Origin: a virus
Virus genome (UHGV): UHGV-0070257
Strand: one strand, 5' to 3'
Length of the DNA: 13,250 bases
Numbering within the stretch: position 1 is the stretch's first letter; the number at the start of each line of letters is the position of its first letter. The notes beneath the pieces are model-generated. The model was given only the letters and a program-made list of their open reading frames with translations. It did no database searches and was not told the DNA's origin. A program made the position numbers and the translations under genes. Below are positions 2,244-13,250 of this stretch, piece after piece.

Positions 2244-2572
2244 CATTCGTCCTGAAACTGGCGCGTGAATTTCGCCGCCCGGACTGGCGCGCCATGCTTG
2301 CTGGTATGTCGTCAACGGAATACGCCGACTGGCGAACGTTCTACCAGGACAATTTTTTTAATGATGCGCAACTGGATGCACATTTTTCCTCGCTGATGCA
2401 TATCGTCATTACCGCGCTTGACCCCAAAACCACATCAACCCCTGCCAGCTTCAGCCTGCTTTCACCTTCTGCGGAGGATATTGCCGATGATGAACCTGGT
2501 GACGCTGTGCTGATGGCAAAGGCCGAGGGCATTTCAGGAGGTGTTCGCTATGGCCCAGACGGCAGTGGGTGA
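1836..2572 (+). CDS. T: G-T fusion tail assembly chaperone made by programmed -1 ribosomal frameshift near the end of G
   Basis: The -1 frame relative to G is open from 2207 to stop 2572 (the track shows only its internal-Met part, 2294..2572) and has no ribosome-binding start of its own. It overlaps the start of H. This is the universal G/GT arrangement of long-tailed phages. The shift must occur between 2207 and 2243. Confidence 0.75.
2219..2225 (+). promoter_or_regulatory. candidate -1 frameshift slippery site G_GAA_AAG
   Basis: This is the only A/G-homopolymeric heptamer inside the 37-nt overlap window (2207-2243). It occupies the position equivalent to lambda G_GGA_AAG, differing by one base. 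The A-site Lys codon AAG can re-pair on AAA. Confidence 0.5.
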
Positions 2573-5069: not shown

Positions 5070-5417
5070 ATGGCGATCGAGCATTTTGCGTGGCGGATTA
5101 AAGCATCCAGCCAGCCGACCCTGAAAAGTAAGGATACCGTCCGTACGGCGCAGTTTGGTGATGGCTATAAGCAGGTTTCAGGTGCCGGGCTGAATGATGA
5201 AACGCTAAGTTATGAGTTTTCATTTACCGGCGAACCGCAAACCGTCCGGGATATTTATGCTTTCCTGCGGCGCCATAAGACGAAATCATTTTCGTTTACC
5301 CCGCCAGGCGGTGATCTTGCGCTGTGGCGCGTTGAGGCAGAAAGCCTGCAGCGCGTCACCAAAAGTAAAACAGTGGAAACCGTATCAGCCACCTTTGAAC
5401 AGGCGTTTGCACCATGA
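5070..5417 (+). CDS. M: minor tail protein, lambda M-like (115 aa)
   Basis: RBS GAGG 6 nt upstream; starts 4 nt after the H stop. Motifs FGDGY.Q...AGLN and SF.FTPP parallel lambda gpM as recalled (109 aa). Confidence 0.88.
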   Translation: MAIEHFAWRIKASSQPTLKSKDTVRTAQFGDGYKQVSGAGLNDETLSYEFSFTGEPQTVRDIYAFLRRHKTKSFSFTPPGGDLALWRVEAESLQRVTKSKTVETVSATFEQAFAP

Positions 5418-6169
5418 GCTTAAACAGTGATTATCAGAAACTTGAGCCGGGCAATGTTGTCCGGCTTTTTGATGTCGATGGCACCGCATTTGGTGTTTCC
5501 GACGTTCTCCGCTTCCACGCCCACAATATTGCCCACACTCCCGATGAAATTGCCGCTGCTGGTGGAGATGAAAATAAGCTACCGGCGAAATCGATCTGGT
5601 GGCAGGGGCAGGAATATAAAGCCTGGCCCTGCCAGATAGAGGGAATTGAGACTGCGACCGACGGGACCAGTGCGCAGCCAACGCTCTCGGTCGCTAACCT
5701 GGATAGTTCCATTACGGCGCTGTGTCTTGCTTATGATGACCTGCTGCAGGCAAAGGTCACCATTCATGACACACTGGCGCAGTATCTGGATGCGAAAAAC
5801 TATCCGGAGGGCAACCCGTCTGGGGATCCTCAGCAGGAAAAGCTGAAGGTGTTTTACATAGACGCCAAGAGCACTGAAACCAACGAGGTGGTGGCGTTTA
5901 CGTTGTCCAGTCCGATGGACCTGCAGGGGCTGATGATCCCGACGCGCCAGTTACATTCGCTTTGTACCTGGTGCATCCGTAACAAATACCGCTCCGGTGA
6001 TGGTTGTGACTACGCCGGAACTCGCTATTTCGACAAACTTAATAATCCTGTTACCGATCCTTCGCGCGATGAATGTAACGGCACGCTCACCGCGTGCAAA
6101 TTGAGGCATGGCGAGGGGAACGAGTTGCCGTTCGGTGGTTTCCCTGGCACATCCCTGATCAGGAGTTGA
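5414..6169 (+). CDS. L: minor tail protein, lambda L-like (251 aa) with C-terminal Cys cluster
   Basis: ATGA overlap with the M stop. Motifs WQGQEYKAWPCQIEG, TSAQPTLSVANL, DPQQEKL, CTWCIRNKYRSGDGCDYAG, CKLRHG and FGGF correspond to lambda gpL as recalled, including the cysteines of its iron-sulfur site. Confidence 0.9.
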   Translation: MSLNSDYQKLEPGNVVRLFDVDGTAFGVSDVLRFHAHNIAHTPDEIAAAGGDENKLPAKSIWWQGQEYKAWPCQIEGIETATDGTSAQPTLSVANLDSSITALCLAYDDLLQAKVTIHDTLAQYLDAKNYPEGNPSGDPQQEKLKVFYIDAKSTETNEVVAFTLSSPMDLQGLMIPTRQLHSLCTWCIRNKYRSGDGCDYAGTRYFDKLNNPVTDPSRDECNGTLTACKLRHGEGNELPFGGFPGTSLIRS

Positions 6170-6170
6170 T

Positions 6171-6881
6171 ATGCGTCAGAAAATTATCGACGCCATTATG
6201 GCGCATGCCGCTTCTGAATATCCCCGCGAATGCTGCGGCGTAGTGGTGCAAAAAAGCAGGGTGCAGCGGTACATTCCTTGCCGTAATCTGGCAACCGATC
6301 CGACAGAGCATTTCCACCTGTCGCCGGAAGATTATGCCGCTGCCGAAGACTGGGGAACAGTGATTGCCATTGTCCACAGTCACCCGGACGCAACGACACA
6401 GCCGAGCGAACTGGATAAGGCACAGTGTGACGCTACGTTACTTCCGTGGCATATCCTCAGCTGGCCGGAGGGGGATCTGCGTACCATTCAGCCGCGGGGC
6501 GAGTTGCCGCTACTTGAGCGCCCATTTGTGCTCGGTCATTTCGATTGCTGGGGGCTGGTGATGAGCTATTTCCGGCAAACGCATGGCATTGAGCTGACGG
6601 ATTACCGCGTGGATTATCCCTGGTGGGAAGACAGTTATCCCGAAAACTTCTACCACGATTGCTGGTATGAATGCGGATTCCGTGAATTCAGTGGCGTACC
6701 GCAGCCAGGTGATATGGTTATCATGCAGGTCCAGGCCAATAAGTGGAATCACGCGGGAATTCTACTGGAAGGTAACATGCTGTTGCATCACCTGTATGGG
6801 CACCTCAGCCAACGTGTGCCATACGGCGGCTACTGGCAAGAAAGAACAATGAAGGTACTTCGCTATAAGACTCTAGCTTAA
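6171..6881 (+). CDS. K: tail assembly protein, lambda K-like (236 aa) with JAB/MPN metalloprotease and NlpC/P60 motifs
   Basis: RBS AGGAG; start overlaps the L stop (TGATATG). JAMM-type motif E...HSHPDATTQPSELD and Cys/His pair (DCWGL ... HAGILL) seen in the translation. About 37 aa longer than lambda gpK (199 aa). Confidence 0.88.
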   Translation: MRQKIIDAIMAHAASEYPRECCGVVVQKSRVQRYIPCRNLATDPTEHFHLSPEDYAAAEDWGTVIAIVHSHPDATTQPSELDKAQCDATLLPWHILSWPEGDLRTIQPRGELPLLERPFVLGHFDCWGLVMSYFRQTHGIELTDYRVDYPWWEDSYPENFYHDCWYECGFREFSGVPQPGDMVIMQVQANKWNHAGILLEGNMLLHHLYGHLSQRVPYGGYWQERTMKVLRYKTLA

Positions 6882-6887
6882 GCCCAT

Positions 6888-7331
6888 TTAGGTGGACTGT
6901 TCCCCTGGAATTTCCACCCCAAAACCATCCGCATCCCAAGTCTTTTCCCAGACTTCGTAACCTAACTCTTTTAGGCGACTAAAAGTTTTTTTGAAAACAG
7001 TGTTGAAATCATCGTCACTAAGTCCGTCCAACTCAAGATCGCTGAGATGAATATGGAATGTGGAATGACCAATCCGTACCTTTTTGTTGATCTCTGAAAA
7101 AGTCCTTTTGAATATTATTTCAGAGAGTTCATCCCTCGCTTTTTCAACAAGTTGAATTGCATCTTGAGCAGAAATTACTTCATCTTCACGTAATTCGCTA
7201 AGGAAGCTGTTGTCGAGACGTTGAACTATTTCAGCATTCATAGAGCGGTTATTGGATTTTGCTGCATCTTCAATTTTTTCTTTTAATTCAATTGGTAATC
7301 TTATTCTTAGTTGAGGATCTTCTCTGCTCAT
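6888..7331 (-). CDS. Arc/Mnt-family ribbon-helix-helix DNA-binding protein with about 100 aa acidic C-terminal extension of unknown function (147 aa)
   Basis: N-terminus PQLRIRLPIELKEKIEDAAKSNNRSMNAEIVQRLDNSF fits the Arc/Mnt RHH pattern (beta strand with alternating residues, then N-[SA]-E-I-[VY]-Q-R helix), by pattern recognition only. RBS GAGG 7 nt upstream of the ATG on the minus strand. Convergent with K, 6 bp apart. Confidence 0.75.
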   Translation of the reverse strand: MSREDPQLRIRLPIELKEKIEDAAKSNNRSMNAEIVQRLDNSFLSELREDEVISAQDAIQLVEKARDELSEIIFKRTFSEINKKVRIGHSTFHIHLSDLELDGLSDDDFNTVFKKTFSRLKELGYEVWEKTWDADGFGVEIPGEQST

Positions 7332-7366
7332 TTGGTTGCCTCACTCAAAAAGTTCACATTATGTAA

Positions 7367-7440
7367 ATTATGCCCCACGGTGGGGTTGACATCAATGACG
7401 CACGGTGTGACACTTTATGTGTCCCACCGTGGGGCATAAT
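7367..7440. promoter_or_regulatory. divergent promoter/operator region: two inverted copies of ATTATG-CCCCAC(G/C)GTGGGG, overlapping back-to-back promoters
   Basis: Arm 1 (7367-7385, attatgccccacggtgggg) and arm 2 (7422-7440, tcccaccgtggggcataat) are reverse complements at 18/19 positions, and each core is itself near-palindromic. Leftward promoter: -35 TTGATG (minus strand of 7390-7395), 17-nt spacer containing box 1, -10 CATAAT (minus strand of 7367-7372). Rightward promoter: consensus -35 TTGACA 7386-7391, 17-nt spacer, extended -10 TGtGACACT 7406-7414, which would place box 2 at the transcript start. Confidence 0.6.
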
Positions 7441-7450
7441 TGGAGGGGTT

Positions 7451-7618
7451 ATGGAAAAAGCTAAAGATATGTACCAGCGTAAGGTTCGATTTCCTGAAGA
7501 TGTCCGGTTGGCGATAGAGAGAAATGGGGAAGATGAGTGCCGTCAGTTCAATACTGAGCTCATCTATCAGTTGAGGAAAGCGTACGGATTAGAAGGGGGG
7601 AAGAGTGAACAAGCATAA
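7451..7618 (+). CDS. small Arc-like ribbon-helix-helix repressor (55 aa)
   Basis: SD GGAGGGG 7442-7448 then ATG 7451. Translation MEKAKDMYQRKVRFPEDVRLAIERNGEDECRQFNTELIYQLRKAYGLEGGKSEQA is comparable in size and pattern to P22 Arc (53 aa; RWP...NSEIYQR). The track start at 7370 would place the operator boxes inside the ORF and is rejected. Confidence 0.65.
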   Translation: MEKAKDMYQRKVRFPEDVRLAIERNGEDECRQFNTELIYQLRKAYGLEGGKSEQA

Positions 7619-7625
7619 AAACAGT

Positions 7626-7660
7626 GAAACCCAGGAGTGCGCGAACACCCTGGGTTTCTT
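7626..7660. terminator. perfect 10-bp stem-loop (GAAACCCAGG - 13 nt loop - CCTGGGTTTC) with U-rich flanks on both strands; candidate bidirectional terminator/attenuator
   Basis: Read directly: 7626-7635 is the exact reverse complement of 7649-7658. It is followed by TT on the + strand and by ACTGTTTTTAT on the - strand. It lies between the Arc-like gene stop (7618) and the first ATG of the next gene (7692). Confidence 0.45.
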
Positions 7661-7691
7661 ATCGAAGAAATCCTTGGCAGGAAATATCGAC

Positions 7692-8273
7692 ATGAACAGT
7701 GTAACGAAAGAAGAGCTGAACTTCCATGGCATTTCTCTGCAGCCGGCTCCTGATATCGATGGCATCTGGCTGACCGCTAATCAGATTGGTTACGCGCTTC
7801 AATATGCAGACGATAAAGCTGTTCAGCGAATTTTTGCTCGTCATATTGATGAGTTTACAGAAAAAATGACAAGGGTGGTCAAGTTGACCACCCCTGGTGG
7901 GCATCAGGAAACTAGGGTTTTTTCTCTACGTGGCGCACACATGGTCGCTATGTTTGCCAGAACTCCGGTTGCTAAAGAATTCCGACACTGGGTGTTAGAC
8001 ATTCTGGACCGTGAGGTATCTATTAACTTTCCAGTACCGAAGATGCTCAGCGATCGAGAAGTCCACGCCCACAATGCAAACGCAATGTTCGATTATTTCG
8101 AGATTATGTGTGAAGCATGGTTTAACCAGATAGAGCCAGCGTTGAGGGCGATTGAGTCTCCGCTCGCAGGCCGTCTTCACGATCGTTTCAATGATGGGGC
8201 CGCGTTTATGTACATGATTAAGACTCATGCTGAACTACAGCTTCAGGAAGGAGAAAGGCCAAGAATCTACTGA
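7692..8273 (+). CDS. antirepressor-like protein with Bro-N/AntA-type N-terminal domain (193 aa from ATG 7692; alternative GTG start 7605 gives 222 aa)
   Basis: Segment NFHGISLQPAPDIDGIWLTANQIGYALQYADDKAVQRIFARHIDE...PGGHQETRVFSLRGAHMVAMFARTPVAKEFRHWVLDIL fits the phage antirepressor N-terminal domain pattern (F.F...GE.W..A..I...L... ending F..WV). Family call is pattern-based, not searched. Start is ambiguous: GTG 7605 has a G-rich SD but puts the 10-bp hairpin inside the ORF. Confidence 0.6.
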   Translation: MNSVTKEELNFHGISLQPAPDIDGIWLTANQIGYALQYADDKAVQRIFARHIDEFTEKMTRVVKLTTPGGHQETRVFSLRGAHMVAMFARTPVAKEFRHWVLDILDREVSINFPVPKMLSDREVHAHNANAMFDYFEIMCEAWFNQIEPALRAIESPLAGRLHDRFNDGAAFMYMIKTHAELQLQEGERPRIY

Positions 8274-8296
8274 ATTTGCAATGCTGCAAATAGAAA

Positions 8297-8320
8297 AGCC
8301 GATAGTTAGGGCTATCGGCT
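8297..8320. repeat. perfect 9-bp inverted repeat AGCCGATAG-TTAGGG-CTATCGGCT between the two antirepressor-like genes
   Basis: Read directly. No T-tract follows, so it is more likely a protein-binding palindrome or RNA processing/stability hairpin than an intrinsic terminator. Confidence 0.4.
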
Positions 8321-8350
8321 ATCCATAAATCTGTCATAAGGGTCCAACCA

Positions 8351-9094
8351 ATGACTTCATTAAATTTAGCAGTAAATAGCGCTAATGTCACCGAGAAAAC
8401 CATTGATAGCCAGTACTTGCTGGAGATGGTGAATGCTGCGCGAAAGCAATGCGGTGAGCCGGCTGTCCGAAATAACAAGTTCATTGAGAAGGTTGTTGAT
8501 GAGCTTGAAGGGGAGACCTACACAAAAAGTGTAGGTCGTAAAAATGGTCAAGACATTGAAGTAATTACAATGTCTATCAAGCAAGCCCTCCGAGTAGCCG
8601 CTCGTGAATCGAAAGCCGTTCGACGTTCTCTGGTTGATAAGCTGGAAGATATGCAGGTATTACCAGCGATGCCAAAAAGCAACACAGGTATCACTGAGTA
8701 CCGATTGGCTAAGGCAGAACAGTTGAAAGCCCAGGCATTGGAGAAGAATATCGCGAGCGCGCGGGAAATCATTACTCTGCTTCCTAGATTGGATCCGATG
8801 GCACATCAGGTGCTCACGGCATCGTTGATTAATCCGCTTATTGGTTATGACGCCATCCCGTTACCTGTTATCGAGGAGCATTACCACACTGCGAGTGAGG
8901 TGGGGGAGATGCTGGGGGTTTCTGCTCAGAAAATTGGACGCGTTGCTAACACACACAAGCTGAAGACAGAAGCGCATGGCAAGTTCTTTCTGGACAAGTC
9001 GGCCTACTCAAGTAAACAGGTTGAAGCGTTCCGGTACAACACTAACGGAATTGATGCGTTGCGCCATCTGATTCATGGTGCTGATGTGGCATAA
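8351..9094 (+). CDS. phage antirepressor/regulatory protein, Rha-like N-terminal region and KilAC-like C-terminal domain (247 aa)
   Basis: RBS AAGGG. N-terminal TIDSQYLLEMVNAARKQCGEPAVRNNKFIEKVVDEL resembles the Rha-family pattern. C-terminal HYHTASEVGEMLGVSAQKIGRVANTHKLKTEAHGKFFLDKSAYSSKQVEAFRYNTNGIDAL resembles the Ant/KilAC C-terminal domain. Pattern-based assignment. Confidence 0.6.
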   Translation: MTSLNLAVNSANVTEKTIDSQYLLEMVNAARKQCGEPAVRNNKFIEKVVDELEGETYTKSVGRKNGQDIEVITMSIKQALRVAARESKAVRRSLVDKLEDMQVLPAMPKSNTGITEYRLAKAEQLKAQALEKNIASAREIITLLPRLDPMAHQVLTASLINPLIGYDAIPLPVIEEHYHTASEVGEMLGVSAQKIGRVANTHKLKTEAHGKFFLDKSAYSSKQVEAFRYNTNGIDALRHLIHGADVA

Positions 9095-9127
9095 ATTTCA
9101 AAGCAGTTAAAATGTTTTTGCTATCCC

Positions 9128-9155
9128 AACCCGCTTAACTGCGGGTTTTGTCGTT
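9128..9155 (+). terminator. intrinsic terminator candidate (AACCCGC-TTAACT-GCGGGTT then TTGTCGTT)
   Basis: 7-bp stem and 6-nt loop followed by a T-rich run, 34 nt after the stop of the 8351..9094 gene. Confidence 0.5.
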
Positions 9156-9204
9156 ACCGGATCCCTGCTACTCTTTTGGCAAATTAATCAAAGGTGATAG
9201 GGAT

Positions 9205-9630
9205 ATGAAAAAGACTTTGCTGCTTCTAATTGCGCTTAGCGTTGCTGGGTGTTCAACCACGGCGGTGAATTCTACCGTTGCAAAACAAGTACCATCTGAA
9301 CGTGTATTGCTGAAGGGGGCTGGTGACTCGGTGATAACAATTACACGAGATCAAGGATGGTTTGCTGGTGGTGGATGCTTTGTAGAAGTAACTATTGATG
9401 GAAAATCCTATGCAAGAATTGATACGGGAGAAACGATCGATATCAATGTTACATCCGGCCGACATATTCTAGGAATATCTGGCGATTCAAAAGGTAAAGG
9501 ATTATGTGGAATGCAGGTCGGACAACCACTCAAAGAGACTGCCACGCAGATCAATGCTCGTGAACATCAAAAATTCCGCATCACCGGAGATACTAATTCC
9601 GGACTTGATATCAGAGCATCAACCATATAG
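9205..9630 (+). CDS. predicted outer-membrane lipoprotein (141 aa precursor), function unknown; candidate superinfection-exclusion or host-interaction moron
   Basis: ATG 9205 with SD AGGTGA upstream. Signal peptide MKKTLLLLIALSVAGC with lipobox L-S-V-A-G-C and Ser at +2 (no Lol-avoidance Asp). Two further Cys in the mature part. The track start 9148 is a TTG upstream of the signal peptide and is rejected. Confidence 0.75.
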   Translation: MKKTLLLLIALSVAGCSTTAVNSTVAKQVPSERVLLKGAGDSVITITRDQGWFAGGGCFVEVTIDGKSYARIDTGETIDINVTSGRHILGISGDSKGKGLCGMQVGQPLKETATQINAREHQKFRITGDTNSGLDIRASTI

Positions 9631-9650
9631 TTCGAGTCATTTTATAAATG

Positions 9651-9675
9651 GCCACCTCCGGGTGGCTTTTTTATT
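9651..9675 (+). terminator. intrinsic terminator (GCCACC-TCCG-GGTGGC then TTTTTTATT)
   Basis: Perfect 6-bp GC-rich stem, tetraloop and T-tract, 20 nt after the lipoprotein stop and immediately before the gene I RBS. Confidence 0.75.
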
Positions 9676-9685
9676 GGAGAAGAGT

Positions 9686-10276
9686 ATGCAGCAAGAAGTT
9701 ATGACCCAAATTGAACTGAGCGGGATTCTTGGCAAAACCTTTGGTAAGACGCATCATCGTTTAATTAGCTCAACCCGAGAAGCCTGTCGAGCGCTAGCTG
9801 CAACAGTGAAAGGGTTTGAGGCCTTCATGAATTCAAGTAAACAGCGCGGTCTGACATATGCAGTTTTTCGAGGAAAGAAAAATATTGGGGAAGATGATTT
9901 AGGCTTTCCGGCGACAGGTGAAGTGATCCGGATCGTGCCAGTAGTTATTGGTAGTAAAAAAGCTGGCCTGTTACAAACCATATTAGGTGCCGTCCTTGTT
10001 GTAGCTGGCTACGCTTTGTCAGGTTTTACTGGCGGTGCAAGTATGGCATTGGTCGCACCCGGTGTTGCATTAATGGCTGGAGGCGTAATCCAAATGCTTT
10101 CGCCACAGCCAGCAGGACTTGCCAGCAAACAGGATGCCGAAAATCGGGCTTCGTATGCATTCGGTGGTGTAACTAACACTGCTGCTCAGGGTAATCCAGT
10201 TCCGCTTCTATACGGACGCAGGCGTATTGGCGGGGCGATCATCTCTGCTGGTATATACGTCGAAGACCAGCAATAA
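9686..10276 (+). CDS. I: tail assembly protein, lambda I-like (196 aa)
   Basis: SD GGAGAAG then ATG 9686. Translation ...GEVIRIVPVVIGSKKAGLLQTILGAVLVVAGY...GGVIQMLSPQP...GNPVPLLYGRRRIGGAIISAGI parallels lambda gpI as recalled (...IHIVPRVAGAKSGGVFQIVLGAA...GGVAQMLAPK...QGNVLPVLYGEMRVGSRVVSQEI). The track start 9506 overlaps the lipoprotein gene and the terminator and is rejected. Confidence 0.85.
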   Translation: MQQEVMTQIELSGILGKTFGKTHHRLISSTREACRALAATVKGFEAFMNSSKQRGLTYAVFRGKKNIGEDDLGFPATGEVIRIVPVVIGSKKAGLLQTILGAVLVVAGYALSGFTGGASMALVAPGVALMAGGVIQMLSPQPAGLASKQDAENRASYAFGGVTNTAAQGNPVPLLYGRRRIGGAIISAGIYVEDQQ

Positions 10277-10296
10277 CAAAATAATCTTCCTTTCAG

Positions 10297-10320
10297 GCTA
10301 CCTTATGGTGGCTTTTTTTA
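10297..10320 (+). terminator. terminator-like hairpin (GCTACC-TTAT-GGTGGC, one G-U pair, then TTTTTTTA) between I and J
   Basis: Its 3' arm plus T-tract (GGTGGCTTTTTTT) nearly duplicates that of the 9651-9675 terminator. Confidence 0.4.
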
Positions 10321-10330
10321 TGGGCGCAAT

Positions 10331-13250
10331 ATGGCTACAGCAATCCCGATTAAAGGCCGCAAGGGCGGCAGTTCCAGTTCACGAACCCCTACCGAACAGC
10401 CTGATGATCTGCAATCTGTAGCGAAGGCCAAAATCCTCGTTGCGCTTGGGGAAGGGGAATTTGCAGGGCAATTAACCGGAAAAAATATCTACCTGGACGG
10501 CACGGCGTTGGAAAACTCCGATGGCACCAAAAACTTTAGCGGCGTGACGTGGGAATTTCGCGCGGGAACTCAGGCACAAAATTACATTCAGGGCATTCCC
10601 GGTACCGAAAACGAAATCAACGTTGGAACTGAAGTATCAAGCGCAACAGCCTGGACGCGTACTTTCACCAACACCCAACTATCAGCCGTTCGCCTGCGAC
10701 TGAAATGGCCTTCTCTGTTTAAGCAGGAGGACAACGGCGATCTGGTAGGGTATTCCATCAATTATGCAATAGACCTGCAAACTGATGGTGGGACCTGGCA
10801 AACCGTTCTTAATACCAGCGTAACCGGCAAAACGACGTCTGGTTATGAGCGCAGCCACCGTATTGATTTACCGCAGGCTGGCAGCACCTGGACAATCCGA
10901 CTGCGTAAGATTAACGCTGACGCAAACAGCGCCAAGATCGGCGACACGATGACGCTGCAAAGCTTCACGGAGGTGATTGATGCCAAGTTGCGCTATCCGA
11001 ACACCGCGCTGCTGTACATCGAATTCGACTCAAGTCAGTTCAATGGTTCGATTCCACAGATATCCTGTGAACCACGTGGCCGGGTGATCCGAGTGCCTGA
11101 TAACTATGACCCCGATACGCGGACTTATAGTGGTACATGGCAGGGCGCGTTTAAGTGGGCCTGGACCGATAACCCGGCGTGGATATTTTACGATCTGGTT
11201 ATTACCGATCGCTTTGGTCTGGGTAATCGCCTGAGTGCAGCCAACATCGATAAATGGACGTTGTACCAGGTATCGCAGTATTGCGATCAGCCGGTACCGG
11301 ATGGAAAGGGTGGAAGCGGGACAGAGCCACGCTATACCTGTAACGTCTATGTTCAGGACAGGAATGACGCTTACACTGTGCTGCGTGACTTTGCGGCTAT
11401 ATTCCGGGGTATGACGTACTGGGGCGGTGATCAGATTGTTGCGCTTGCCGATATGCCGAGAGATGTGGATTACGCTTACACCCGCGCTAACGTTATCGAC
11501 GGACGCTTTACCTATTCCAGCAGCACGACAAAAACGCGGTATACCACCGCGCTGGTTTCCTGGTCTGATCCGGGTAACGCTTATGCGGATGCGATGGAGC
11601 CAGTATTTGAGCAGCCTCTGGTGGCCCGGTACGGATTTAATCAGCTGGAAATGACAGCCATCGGTTGTACCCGTCAATCAGAAGCGAACCGAAAGGGGCG
11701 CTGGGGTATTCTCACCAACAATAAGGATCGTGTTGTTTCGTTTGATGTTGGCCTGGACGGAAACATTCCGCAGCCGGGATACATCATCGCCGTGTCAGAC
11801 GAGCTTCTGTCCGGCAAAGTTATGGGTGGCCGCATCAGTGCTGTTAACGGTCGCGTGATAAAACTTGACCGCGTAGTTGATGCAGCAGCAGGCGATCGCC
11901 TTATTATCAATCTTCCCTCCGGTGCGTCACAGAGCAGGACTATTCAGGCGATTAATGGGGAATCAGTCACAGTCACCACGGCATACAGTGAGACACCACA
12001 GGCCGAAGCTGTATGGGTGGTTGAGTCAGATGAACTCTACGCCCAGCAGTATCGAGTTGTCAGCGTCTCCGATAATGATGATGGCACTTTCTCTATTACC
12101 GGCGCATGGCATGACCCGGATAAATATGCCCGTATCGATACCGGAGCCATCATTGACCAGCGGCCCGTGAGTGTAATCCCGCCTGGTAACCAGTCGCCGC
12201 CGGCTAACATTGTGATCAGCTCGTTTTCAGTGGTGCAGCAGAATATCAGCGTCGAAACCATGCGTGTGAGCTGGGACCAGGCGCAGAATGCTATCGCCTA
12301 CGAGGCACAGTGGCGCCGCAATGATGGTAACTGGGTAAACGTGCCGCGCAGCTCCACCACCTCATTTGATGTATCGGGTATTTATGCCGGGCGCTACCTC
12401 GTGCGTGTGCGTGCCATTAATGCCGCTGAAATTTCCTCTGGCTGGGGCTACTCCGAAGAGAAAACGCTGACGGGCAAGGTGGGAAATCCACCGAAACCTG
12501 TCGGCTTTGCGACAACGCCGATCAACTGGGGGATTCGCCTGAACTGGGGATTCCCGGCTAACACCGGGGATACGCTGAAAACGGAAATTCAGTACACCGC
12601 GAACAGTGATTTCTCTAATCCTCTATTGCTGTCGGATGTGCCTTATCCGTCAGCCGAATACACCCAACTGGGACTGAAGGCGGGACAGGAGTTCTGGTAC
12701 CGCGCGCAGCTGGTTGACAGAACGGGTAATGAATCAGGCTGGACCGACTGGGTTCGTGGTGTATCCAACGCGAATGCTGACGACTACCTGGGCGATATTG
12801 CTGATGACTTCCTGACGTCTGCAGACGGTGACCGCCTGACAGGCGACATTGATACCAACCTCGAAGCCGCATGGCAGAACGCGCTGGCCAACCATGCAAC
12901 CGTGGAACATCAGTGGGCGCAGTACGGCGAGGTACGCGCGGATATTCTGGTGGTTAAAACGACCATTGCGCAGGTCGATAAGGCCATGGCTGAAATGTCG
13001 ACGCAGGTGAAGGCGCAGTTCAATAATGTAACTGCCGCACTGGAGGACAAGCTTACTGCCGTGGTTGATGCTACCGGAGCCTCTGCGATTTACACCCTCA
13101 AAACTGGGGTCCGGATTAACGGTGTGATGTATAACGCCGGAATGTCGATTGCGGTGCTGGCGGAGGCGGGTAAGCCGGTAGTCACTCGTGTCGGATTTAA
13201 CGCCAATCAGTTCGTCCTGATGAGTGGCAGCGGTGATACGCAATATTCAC
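10331..13250 (+). CDS. J: host-specificity / central tail fibre protein, lambda J-like, N-terminal about 973 codons (3' end beyond window)
   Basis: ATG 10331 opens a frame with no stop to the window edge; it is absent from the ORF track because it has no stop in the window. Hand translation MATAIPIKGRKGGSSSSRTP...RYPNTALLYIEFDSSQFNGSIP...RVPDNYDPDTRTYSGTWQG...YCDQPVPDGKGGSGTEPRYTCNVY... parallels lambda gpJ as recalled. Fibronectin-III-like repeats at about 12180-12770 (...RVSWDQAQNAIAYEAQWRRNDGNWVNV...YLVRVRAINAAEISSGW...). Confidence 0.9.
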   Translation, partial: MATAIPIKGRKGGSSSSRTPTEQPDDLQSVAKAKILVALGEGEFAGQLTGKNIYLDGTALENSDGTKNFSGVTWEFRAGTQAQNYIQGIPGTENEINVGTEVSSATAWTRTFTNTQLSAVRLRLKWPSLFKQEDNGDLVGYSINYAIDLQTDGGTWQTVLNTSVTGKTTSGYERSHRIDLPQAGSTWTIRLRKINADANSAKIGDTMTLQSFTEVIDAKLRYPNTALLYIEFDSSQFNGSIPQISCEPRGRVIRVPDNYDPDTRTYSGTWQGAFKWAWTDNPAWIFYDLVITDRFGLGNRLSAANIDKWTLYQVSQYCDQPVPDGKGGSGTEPRYTCNVYVQDRNDAYTVLRDFAAIFRGMTYWGGDQIVALADMPRDVDYAYTRANVIDGRFTYSSSTTKTRYTTALVSWSDPGNAYADAMEPVFEQPLVARYGFNQLEMTAIGCTRQSEANRKGRWGILTNNKDRVVSFDVGLDGNIPQPGYIIAVSDELLSGKVMGGRISAVNGRVIKLDRVVDAAAGDRLIINLPSGASQSRTIQAINGESVTVTTAYSETPQAEAVWVVESDELYAQQYRVVSVSDNDDGTFSITGAWHDPDKYARIDTGAIIDQRPVSVIPPGNQSPPANIVISSFSVVQQNISVETMRVSWDQAQNAIAYEAQWRRNDGNWVNVPRSSTTSFDVSGIYAGRYLVRVRAINAAEISSGWGYSEEKTLTGKVGNPPKPVGFATTPINWGIRLNWGFPANTGDTLKTEIQYTANSDFSNPLLLSDVPYPSAEYTQLGLKAGQEFWYRAQLVDRTGNESGWTDWVRGVSNANADDYLGDIADDFLTSADGDRLTGDIDTNLEAAWQNALANHATVEHQWAQYGEVRADILVVKTTIAQVDKAMAEMSTQVKAQFNNVTAALEDKLTAVVDATGASAIYTLKTGVRINGVMYNAGMSIAVLAEAGKPVVTRVGFNANQFVLMSGSGDTQYS

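Follow-up and report, generated by a model that had tools for sequence, protein, structure and literature searches.

What is a lipoprotein gene doing inside a phage tail operon? The question is raised by virus genome UHGV-0070257, of which a stretch of 13,250 nucleotides (nt) was analysed (the window). Open reading frame (ORF) calls and matches to Pfam and PHROG profiles show the window to be the tail region of a lambda-like prophage, and at 9205-9630 it carries a gene for a lipoprotein precursor just upstream of the tail genes I and J. The initial annotation did not recognise the product, implying an orphan, and suggested that it might mask the receptor used by the phage's own J protein. Here we assign the lipoprotein to PHROG 890, a family conserved more deeply than any other occupant of a cargo slot between the tail genes K and I, and report that the lipoprotein gene varies together with gene I as a single linkage block, whereas the receptor-binding end of J assorts independently.

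The lipoprotein and its family

Translation of 9205-9630 gives MKKTLLLLIALSVAGC|STT..., a protein of 141 aa. The signal peptide, lipobox and Ser at +2 described in the initial annotation were all found there, with an n-region of MKK, an 11-residue hydrophobic core and the lipobox V-A-G-C; the mature protein, earlier put at about 125 amino acids (aa), was computed to have 126 aa and a mass of 13.3 kDa. VAGC followed by Ser, that is, a lipobox with no Asp at +2, is the Lol-sorting pattern, and under the Sec/Lgt/Lsp/Lol rules the product is predicted to be an outer-membrane lipoprotein, as proposed at the outset, which would face the periplasm and contain a periplasmic disulfide. A longer version of the gene, with a TTG start at 9148, was considered and dropped because every homologue begins at the MKK/MRK methionine; an A/G-rich leader of the GGGGATAGGGAT type is kept among the homologues.

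Far from being an orphan, the protein matches the PHROG 890 profile, annotated "lipoprotein", at an E value of 6.2e-43, with residues 1-140 aligned to profile positions 1-135 of 136. A family profile search that covered 1.84 billion cluster representatives retrieved 1,328 clusters (50% identity) with a cut-off of E <= 1e-3, of which 533 passed E <= 1e-10; the best 150 of the 1,328 were mostly about 140 aa long. Cys16 is invariant, and Cys58 and Cys101 are at least 90% conserved, in 91 diverse homologues. Exactly three cysteines occur in the mature part of 210 of 242 members (median mature length, 126 aa), and the residue at +2 is Ala, Ser or Thr in 208 of the 242 and Asp in one. The median ratio of nonsynonymous to synonymous substitution rates (dN/dS) of the gene was 0.075, compared with 0.055 to 0.072 for K, L and I, the estimate being restricted to eight unsaturated pairs because synonymous sites were saturated in most pairs. 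Since Cys16 is invariant in such diverse homologues and dN/dS is low in these eight pairs, 9205-9630 is a real, conserved gene under purifying selection and no chance ORF.

The closest described relatives are mEp390 gp17, phiAH14a p83, AH14b p21 and SSU5_122, all annotated "lipoprotein", which are true homologues with 30 to 37% identity over their full length and have the lipobox and three-cysteine pattern in common with the window protein. The AlphaFold2 (AF2) model of the protein (pLDDT 81) is an eight-strand transthyretin-like beta-sandwich; TssJ, the outer-membrane lipoprotein of the type VI secretion system, and other transthyretin-like beta-sandwiches share 6 to 13% identity with it, which is generic sandwich similarity only. 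A search of solved structures with the single sequence and with the 91-sequence profile gave no relative, only signal peptides of lipoproteins. The match to Pfam DUF2846 (PF11008) was below threshold (13.5 bits, E 0.078; gathering cut-off, 34.3 bits), and a weak match at E < 0.01 was seen in 15 of the 91 relatives; membership is not established, and the relationship would be distant at most. The DUF2846 literature was uninformative in this case, since its sole structural paper concerns Bd1399, a protein moved by its authors to DUF4360. The PADLOC search for known defence genes gave no match for the lipoprotein, the NCBIfam search gave only a meaningless 11.7-bit match, and Bor/Iss, Lom, TraT and o-spanin were without a match in Pfam (E <= 1) and PHROGs (E <= 0.01); the gene sits in the tail operon.

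Cor, of phi80, N15, HK022 and mEp167, is likewise an outer-membrane lipoprotein made by prophages and encoded in the tail/host-range region, where it serves to inactivate FhuA; unlike the gene of the window, however, cor encodes a precursor of about 77 aa and lies downstream of J. When the family profile was aligned with mEp390 Cor by hhalign, 19 signal-peptide columns aligned and no further homology was found. For action from the periplasmic side, the best mechanistic template is Llp of T5 (PDB 8a60; PMC9586334). This lipoprotein sits in the inner leaflet of the outer membrane, and its gene neighbours the receptor-binding gene, but Llp is a far smaller protein that a virulent phage produces early, with a strict tie to the FhuA-binding protein pb5. 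Only its signal peptide was matched in a profile search of PDB sequences (E 1.8), and it did not appear in the fold searches. Lpp021 of the mEpimmI phages was considered as a member of the same family in the same slot and was rejected: it has 72 aa, its gene is found downstream of J in the opposite orientation, and it aligns only in its signal peptide. In mEp021, K is directly followed by I. HK97 gp15, which belongs to the moron concept of Juhala and Hendrix (PMC3594210), is an inner-membrane protein encoded between the tail chaperone and tape-measure genes and is unrelated in sequence.

By sequence, then, the lipoprotein is classed as a member of PHROG 890, outside the Cor, Llp, Lpp021, Bor, Lom and spanin families, and its likeness to Cor and Llp would at most be that of an envelope lipoprotein moron in the broad sense. 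The homology and structure searches that the initial annotation had proposed as a check were thus productive as regards the family; they yielded no solved-structure relative, and the only part that could be aligned with Cor, Llp or Lpp021 was the signal peptide. A known but uncharacterised family gains one more member, and taken alone the gene is an ordinary phage lipoprotein moron.

A recurrent cargo slot between K and I

Among phage records, homologues with 28 to 37% identity were found in the Escherichia coli phages mEp390, CharmingMan and Fostie, in temperate phages of Pseudomonas aeruginosa, in the Pseudomonas phages phiAH14a and phiAH14b, in Vibrio anguillarum H20-like and Ralstonia phages, and in SSU5-like phage-plasmids. 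The position of the gene is constant: in 36 of 36 IMG/VR loci (40 to 100% identity) it comes after K and is the immediate neighbour of I, which begins 45 to 90 nt further on, and it has the same position in mEp390 (gp17), the P. aeruginosa phages, phiAH14a (p83), a Yokenella homologue (68% identity) and six distant homologues (26 to 36%) from P. fluorescens, P. brassicacearum, Luteibacter and metagenomes. In the window, 55 nt separate it from I, which is followed by J, so the placement given in the initial annotation was correct. Extra genes, where present, are always found between K and the lipoprotein gene and never between the lipoprotein gene and I. In the window itself the gene does not directly follow K, as might have been supposed at first; a 2.2-kb Mnt/Arc/anti-repressor cassette (6888-9094) comes between them.

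Outside the K-I slot, family members were found as the next gene after cI in Vibrio phage H20, behind gene D at one end of a P2-like phage, near the partition genes in the SSU5 phage-plasmid (SSU5_122) and, in one further case, within a prophage early region; these are classic prophage-expressed or accessory sites. In phiAH14b, the I-like gene p20 precedes the lipoprotein gene p21 (PMC4936722). This order, reversed relative to that in the phages, was also observed in L015 (4352-5432) and L016 (590-1670), each with a full-length I-like gene directly followed by a PHROG 890 gene. These small satellite-like elements, phiAH14b among them, are without K, L or J genes, and in L015 and L016 a DUF8168 gene and a resolvase gene adjoin the pair.

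Occupancy of the slot was surveyed in 80 IMG/VR loci, chosen as those with the K closest to that of the window (89 to 98% identity). It was empty in 11 loci and held PHROG 890 in 15, a count based on hidden Markov models (ORF clustering gave 42, inflated by mis-called N-terminal extensions); the commonest occupant in this tail lineage (L057-L136) was PHROG 914, a lipoprotein family of about 112 aa, with 26 loci. The remainder comprised further lipobox proteins (PHROG 3152, a YecR-like PF13992 protein and singletons) and other cargo, namely, a PHROG 13007 signal-peptide protein, a PHROG 5031 small membrane protein and anti-repressor cassettes. PF13992 is the family of YecR, which is associated with the flagellar LP ring. 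The K-I junction is therefore a recurrent cargo site, and the cargo is mostly envelope proteins. Unrelated lipoprotein or membrane-protein genes, and PHROG 890 alleles only 30 to 33% identical, occur beside K genes that are 97 to 98% identical, and such turnover is the pattern expected of conflict genes. At least five unrelated families of lipoproteins or membrane proteins, each accompanied by a terminator of its own, have thus accumulated at one narrow site in Enterobacteriaceae and Pseudomonas, and tail modules that are almost identical exchange both alleles and whole families.

The slot of HK97 (L139, NC_002167) has a terminator of the same type as that of the window and no lipoprotein gene. 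Its K-I gap (2561-2830) holds a gene for a PHROG 5031 small membrane protein, broken after codon 32 by an in-frame TAG, and the putative terminator, already annotated in the record, stands just before gene I; intact 74-aa versions of the PHROG 5031 protein are encoded in L114, L116, L121 and L130.

A moron was among the initial proposals, and the lipoprotein unit of the window has the architecture of one: a promoter-like motif, a gene, a terminator of its own, low G+C content and presence or absence among near-identical tail modules. The G+C content is 43 to 44% across the lipoprotein gene, compared with 53 to 58% in L and K. Flanking terminators had been reported on both sides, and the scan found both hairpins, the downstream one canonical and the upstream one with a weak T tract. 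The upstream hairpin (stem 9128-9147) follows the anti-repressor stop codon, closing the anti-repressor unit and marking the upstream boundary of the lipoprotein unit, and it is kept in the near-identical prophages L008 and L017-L019. Of 34 distinct spacers between the lipoprotein gene and I, 33 contain a G+C-rich hairpin with a T run; the stems differ (GGCCACC/GGTGGCT, GCCGC/GCGGC, ACCGCC/GGCGGT and GCCTCC/GGAGG), and the terminator structure has therefore been maintained, not just inherited. In the slot survey, a terminator-like hairpin was found at most 80 nt before I in 60 of 69 occupied slots versus none of the 11 empty ones.

Upstream of the gene, the extended -10 motif TGnTAnnnT occurs at -29 to -39 from the ATG in 28 of 38 distinct upstream regions (mean of 2.9 and maximum of 8 in shuffled sequences), a count that overstates the number of independent events because the sequences are related. 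The motif is kept across quite different contexts: the stop codon of K (TGCTAACCT), the anti-repressor terminator in the window, and Pseudomonas sequence (TGCTAGAGT). The copy in the window, TGCTACTCT at 9166-9174, is without a clear -35 element and was not listed by the consensus promoter scan; its motif makes it a candidate promoter for expression from the prophage. A promoter-like site that the consensus scan did list, at 9086-9113, was rejected as the lipoprotein promoter because it lies upstream of the 9128-9147 hairpin. A terminator placed before I in a late operon makes sense if the lipoprotein gene is transcribed while I and J are silent, as in a lysogen. Late transcription in lambdoid phages, which is antiterminated by Q, would read through such a terminator.

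Linkage to gene I and possible functions

Co-variation within the tail module was examined with partial Spearman correlations over 23 non-redundant loci, the C-terminal part of J being taken as 220 aa. The lipoprotein co-varied with I, given K (partial rho, 0.55; permutation p of about 0.0005); the values were -0.01 with K, given I, and 0.05 with the N-terminal part of J, given I. Where K is 97 to 98% identical to that of the window but the lipoprotein only 30 to 33%, gene I is 72 to 80% identical; an I that is 99% identical goes with a lipoprotein that is 98% identical, and an I of 82 to 87% goes with a lipoprotein of 69 to 75%. Between mEp390 and the window, identities are 89% for K, 80% for I and 32% for the lipoprotein. 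This block can be accounted for by simple physical linkage, since it is flanked by conserved borders prone to recombination, namely, the 3' end of K and the 5' end of J; a functional tie of the lipoprotein to the product of I (gpI) is conceivable.

The lipoprotein probably alters the envelope of the lysogen. By analogy, and in view of the conflict-like turnover seen in the slot, we tentatively favour envelope-acting superinfection exclusion and/or progeny protection as the function of the lipoprotein, with a confidence that falls somewhat short of even. We postulate that the gene would be expressed in the repressed prophage, where the terminator would prevent transcription of I and J, and that antiterminated late transcription would read through it as well. 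The lipoprotein would then bind, from the periplasmic side, either an envelope component or a component of the incoming tail tip, and would thereby block adsorption or DNA delivery by other phages, as with T5 Llp and Cor; its specificity would not be set by the receptor-binding end of the phage's own J, and it would be inherited as a block with gene I. Small lipoproteins from phage structural clusters are known to exclude phages: Llp of T5 acts on FhuA from the periplasmic side (PMC9586334), and Lpp021 and Lpp010 are tested exclusion lipoproteins encoded in the structural cluster (PMC11893012). The place of the window gene in the genome resembles those of Cor and of Lpp021/Lpp010. For the homologue AH14a_p83, a Cor-like role has already been suggested by the authors of the phiAH14a genome (PMC4936722).

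Several observations weigh against an exclusion function. The candidate promoter and expression from the prophage are deduced from motifs, and the sequences behind the motif counts are related. Others concern J and also count against the version in the initial annotation, in which a Cor/Llp-type blocker inactivates the receptor recognised by this phage's own J. Given I, the lipoprotein was not correlated with the C terminus of J (partial rho, 0.08; permutation p, 0.24), and there are discordant loci, namely, L025, where the lipoprotein is 86% and the J C terminus 42% identical, and L034, with 66% and 75%. A single J C-terminal cluster (at least 80% identity, 19 loci) contained six slot states (PHROG 890 in 8 loci, PHROG 914 in 4, YecR-like in 2, other in 2, PHROG 3152 in 1 and empty in 2), PHROG 890 itself was seen together with 10 or more J C-terminal clusters, and the cross-table of cargo against cluster was without association; these J comparisons cover 23 to 35 loci and single-linkage clusters, with side fibres ignored. 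Furthermore, mEp390 (L001) holds a PHROG 890 gene (6001-6405) in the K-I slot as well as a Cor gene (11652-11885) downstream of J; the host-range region of a single phage can thus accommodate two lipoprotein cargoes. Since the lipoprotein does not track the J C terminus and mEp390 has Cor in addition, a logic of masking the phage's own receptor is not evident. The location of the gene two genes upstream of J, the precedents of Cor, Llp and Lpp021/Lpp010, and the finding that near-identical lipoproteins (98 to 100%) go with fairly similar J C termini (68 to 82%) speak for such a blocker; with homology to Cor, Llp and Lpp021 confined to the signal peptide, we nevertheless consider it improbable.

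A host-benefit role would leave the same genomic signature as exclusion, which is a further point against our preferred interpretation. The lipoprotein could be a lysogenic-conversion factor, that is, an outer-membrane lipoprotein expressed from the prophage for host fitness, for example, through Bor/Iss-like serum or complement resistance, envelope stress tolerance or adhesion. It has its moron architecture and envelope location in common with Bor and Lom, its presence is independent of J type, and members of the family are carried by phage-plasmids of pathogens (SSU5; the mEp390 annotation also cites a lipoprotein of Yersinia pestis CO92). However, Pfam gave no match to Lambda_Bor or any other family of known function, the tight and ancient coupling to I in free-living soil Pseudomonas and Luteibacter is unlike virulence-type cargo, and the fast swapping of unrelated slot lipoproteins fits conflict better than a single host benefit; we regard this explanation as unlikely, but as one to be taken seriously. 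It is also conceivable that the protein functions only in the lytic cycle, in outer-membrane disruption and release or in stopping progeny from ejecting their DNA on envelope debris, with no role in the lysogen. The gene is part of the late tail operon, where in most relatives some 30 nt separate it from K, and must therefore be transcribed late, and Llp acts during lytic growth of T5. The conserved terminator before I and the extended -10 motif, however, are mainly sensible if the gene is also expressed while I and J are off, the Vibrio phage H20 homologue follows cI, and 11 of the 80 close relatives have nothing in the slot, so that the gene is dispensable for making virions; it lies outside any lysis cassette, and its product is unlike a spanin. 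A purely lytic function therefore seems to us quite improbable.

A bolder form of the exclusion hypothesis, which we rate no higher than a long shot, is that the K-I slot is a dedicated and ancient landing pad for envelope proteins and that PHROG 890 is a large class of exclusion lipoproteins partnered with gpI, or with its periplasmic penetration step, and not with the receptor-binding end of J. The lipoprotein, positioned under the outer membrane, would intercept the glycine-rich hydrophobic C-terminal part of an incoming gpI of the same type and so abort channel formation and DNA delivery. Such a partnership would explain why the lipoprotein gene is always adjacent to I, why its divergence tracks that of I and why I-lipoprotein pairs occur in satellite-like elements. 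If the cargo proteins do act in exclusion, the K-I slot would be a rich and easily mined source of envelope-level anti-phage proteins, with relevance to host range in phage therapy and to competition between prophages, and the fact that PHROG 890 is linked to I and not to J would offer a handle on what sets the specificity of exclusion.

Layout of the window and neighbouring genes

The features of the window are listed in Table 1. The insert between K and I (6888-9680) consists of a P22 immI-like cassette and the lipoprotein gene; the cassette is missing from most relatives, and Citrobacter freundii prophages of the same layout encode lipoprotein homologues that are 99 to 100% identical. Megablast of 9100-9700 against the phage collection gave no match, and megablast of 6800-10300 against complete E. 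coli genomes gave a sole match, of 77%, in the Arc-family region; the exact element is thus absent from those collections, and protein-level searches were needed.

Table 1. Positions of genes, sites and motifs in the window
Feature	Position	Strand	Remarks
U/V-type tail tube genes	in window		ORF calls, profile matches
Phage_TAC_2 / Phage_tail_T pair	1836-2243 and 2294-2572		match to genes of near-identical prophages
Tape measure gene H	2541-5066
Gene M	5070-5417
Gene L	5414-6169
Tail gene K	6171-6881	plus	JAB plus NlpC/P60 domains; upstream border of cargo slot
P22 immI-like cassette	6888-9094		context between K and lipoprotein unit; profile matches
Mnt/Arc-family repressor gene	6888-7331	minus	146 aa; PHROG 1388
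Small Arc-like gene	7448-7618		divergent from Mnt/Arc-family gene
Ant anti-repressor gene	7605-8273		with Bro-N (Bro-N/P22_AR_C)
Second anti-repressor gene	8351-9094		PHROG 1726
Terminator-like hairpin	9128-9155 (stem 9128-9147)	plus	weak T tract TTGTCGTT; scan: 7 pairs, 5 G-C
Extended -10 promoter-like element (candidate)	9166-9174	plus	TGCTACTCT; 39 nt before ATG
Shine-Dalgarno sequence	9192-9197	plus	AGGTGA; 7 nt before ATG
Lipoprotein precursor gene	9205-9630	plus	141 aa; PHROG 890 match
Signal peptide	9205-9249		residues 1-15
Lipid-attachment Cys16	9250-9252		Ser at +2
Conserved Cys58	9376-9378
Conserved Cys101	9505-9507
Intrinsic terminator	9650-9675 (stem 9650-9667)	plus	GGCCACCTCCGGGTGGCT + TTTTTATT; scan; canonical; between lipoprotein gene and I
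Tail assembly gene I	9686-10276	plus	PHROG 32, E 7.9e-76; invariant downstream neighbour of lipoprotein gene
Gene J	from ~10331		start

The C-terminal half of gpI contains a long, hydrophobic, glycine-rich stretch (approximately residues 91 to 156) with weak SseC/ApoL matches in Pfam; it is membrane-active in appearance, and this could matter if the linked lipoprotein targets incoming gpI. Within the immI-like cassette, minus-strand terminator-like hairpins were seen at 8297-8320 and 7870-7896, within or between the plus-strand anti-repressor genes. In L008-L013 and L019, a variant of the cassette was found in which the Arc protein has 118 aa and the second anti-repressor is only 49% identical to that of the window. 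At the other end of the window, the ORFs at 1836-2243 and 2294-2572 form the usual G/G-T tail chaperone pair, of which T is normally reached via a -1 frameshift.

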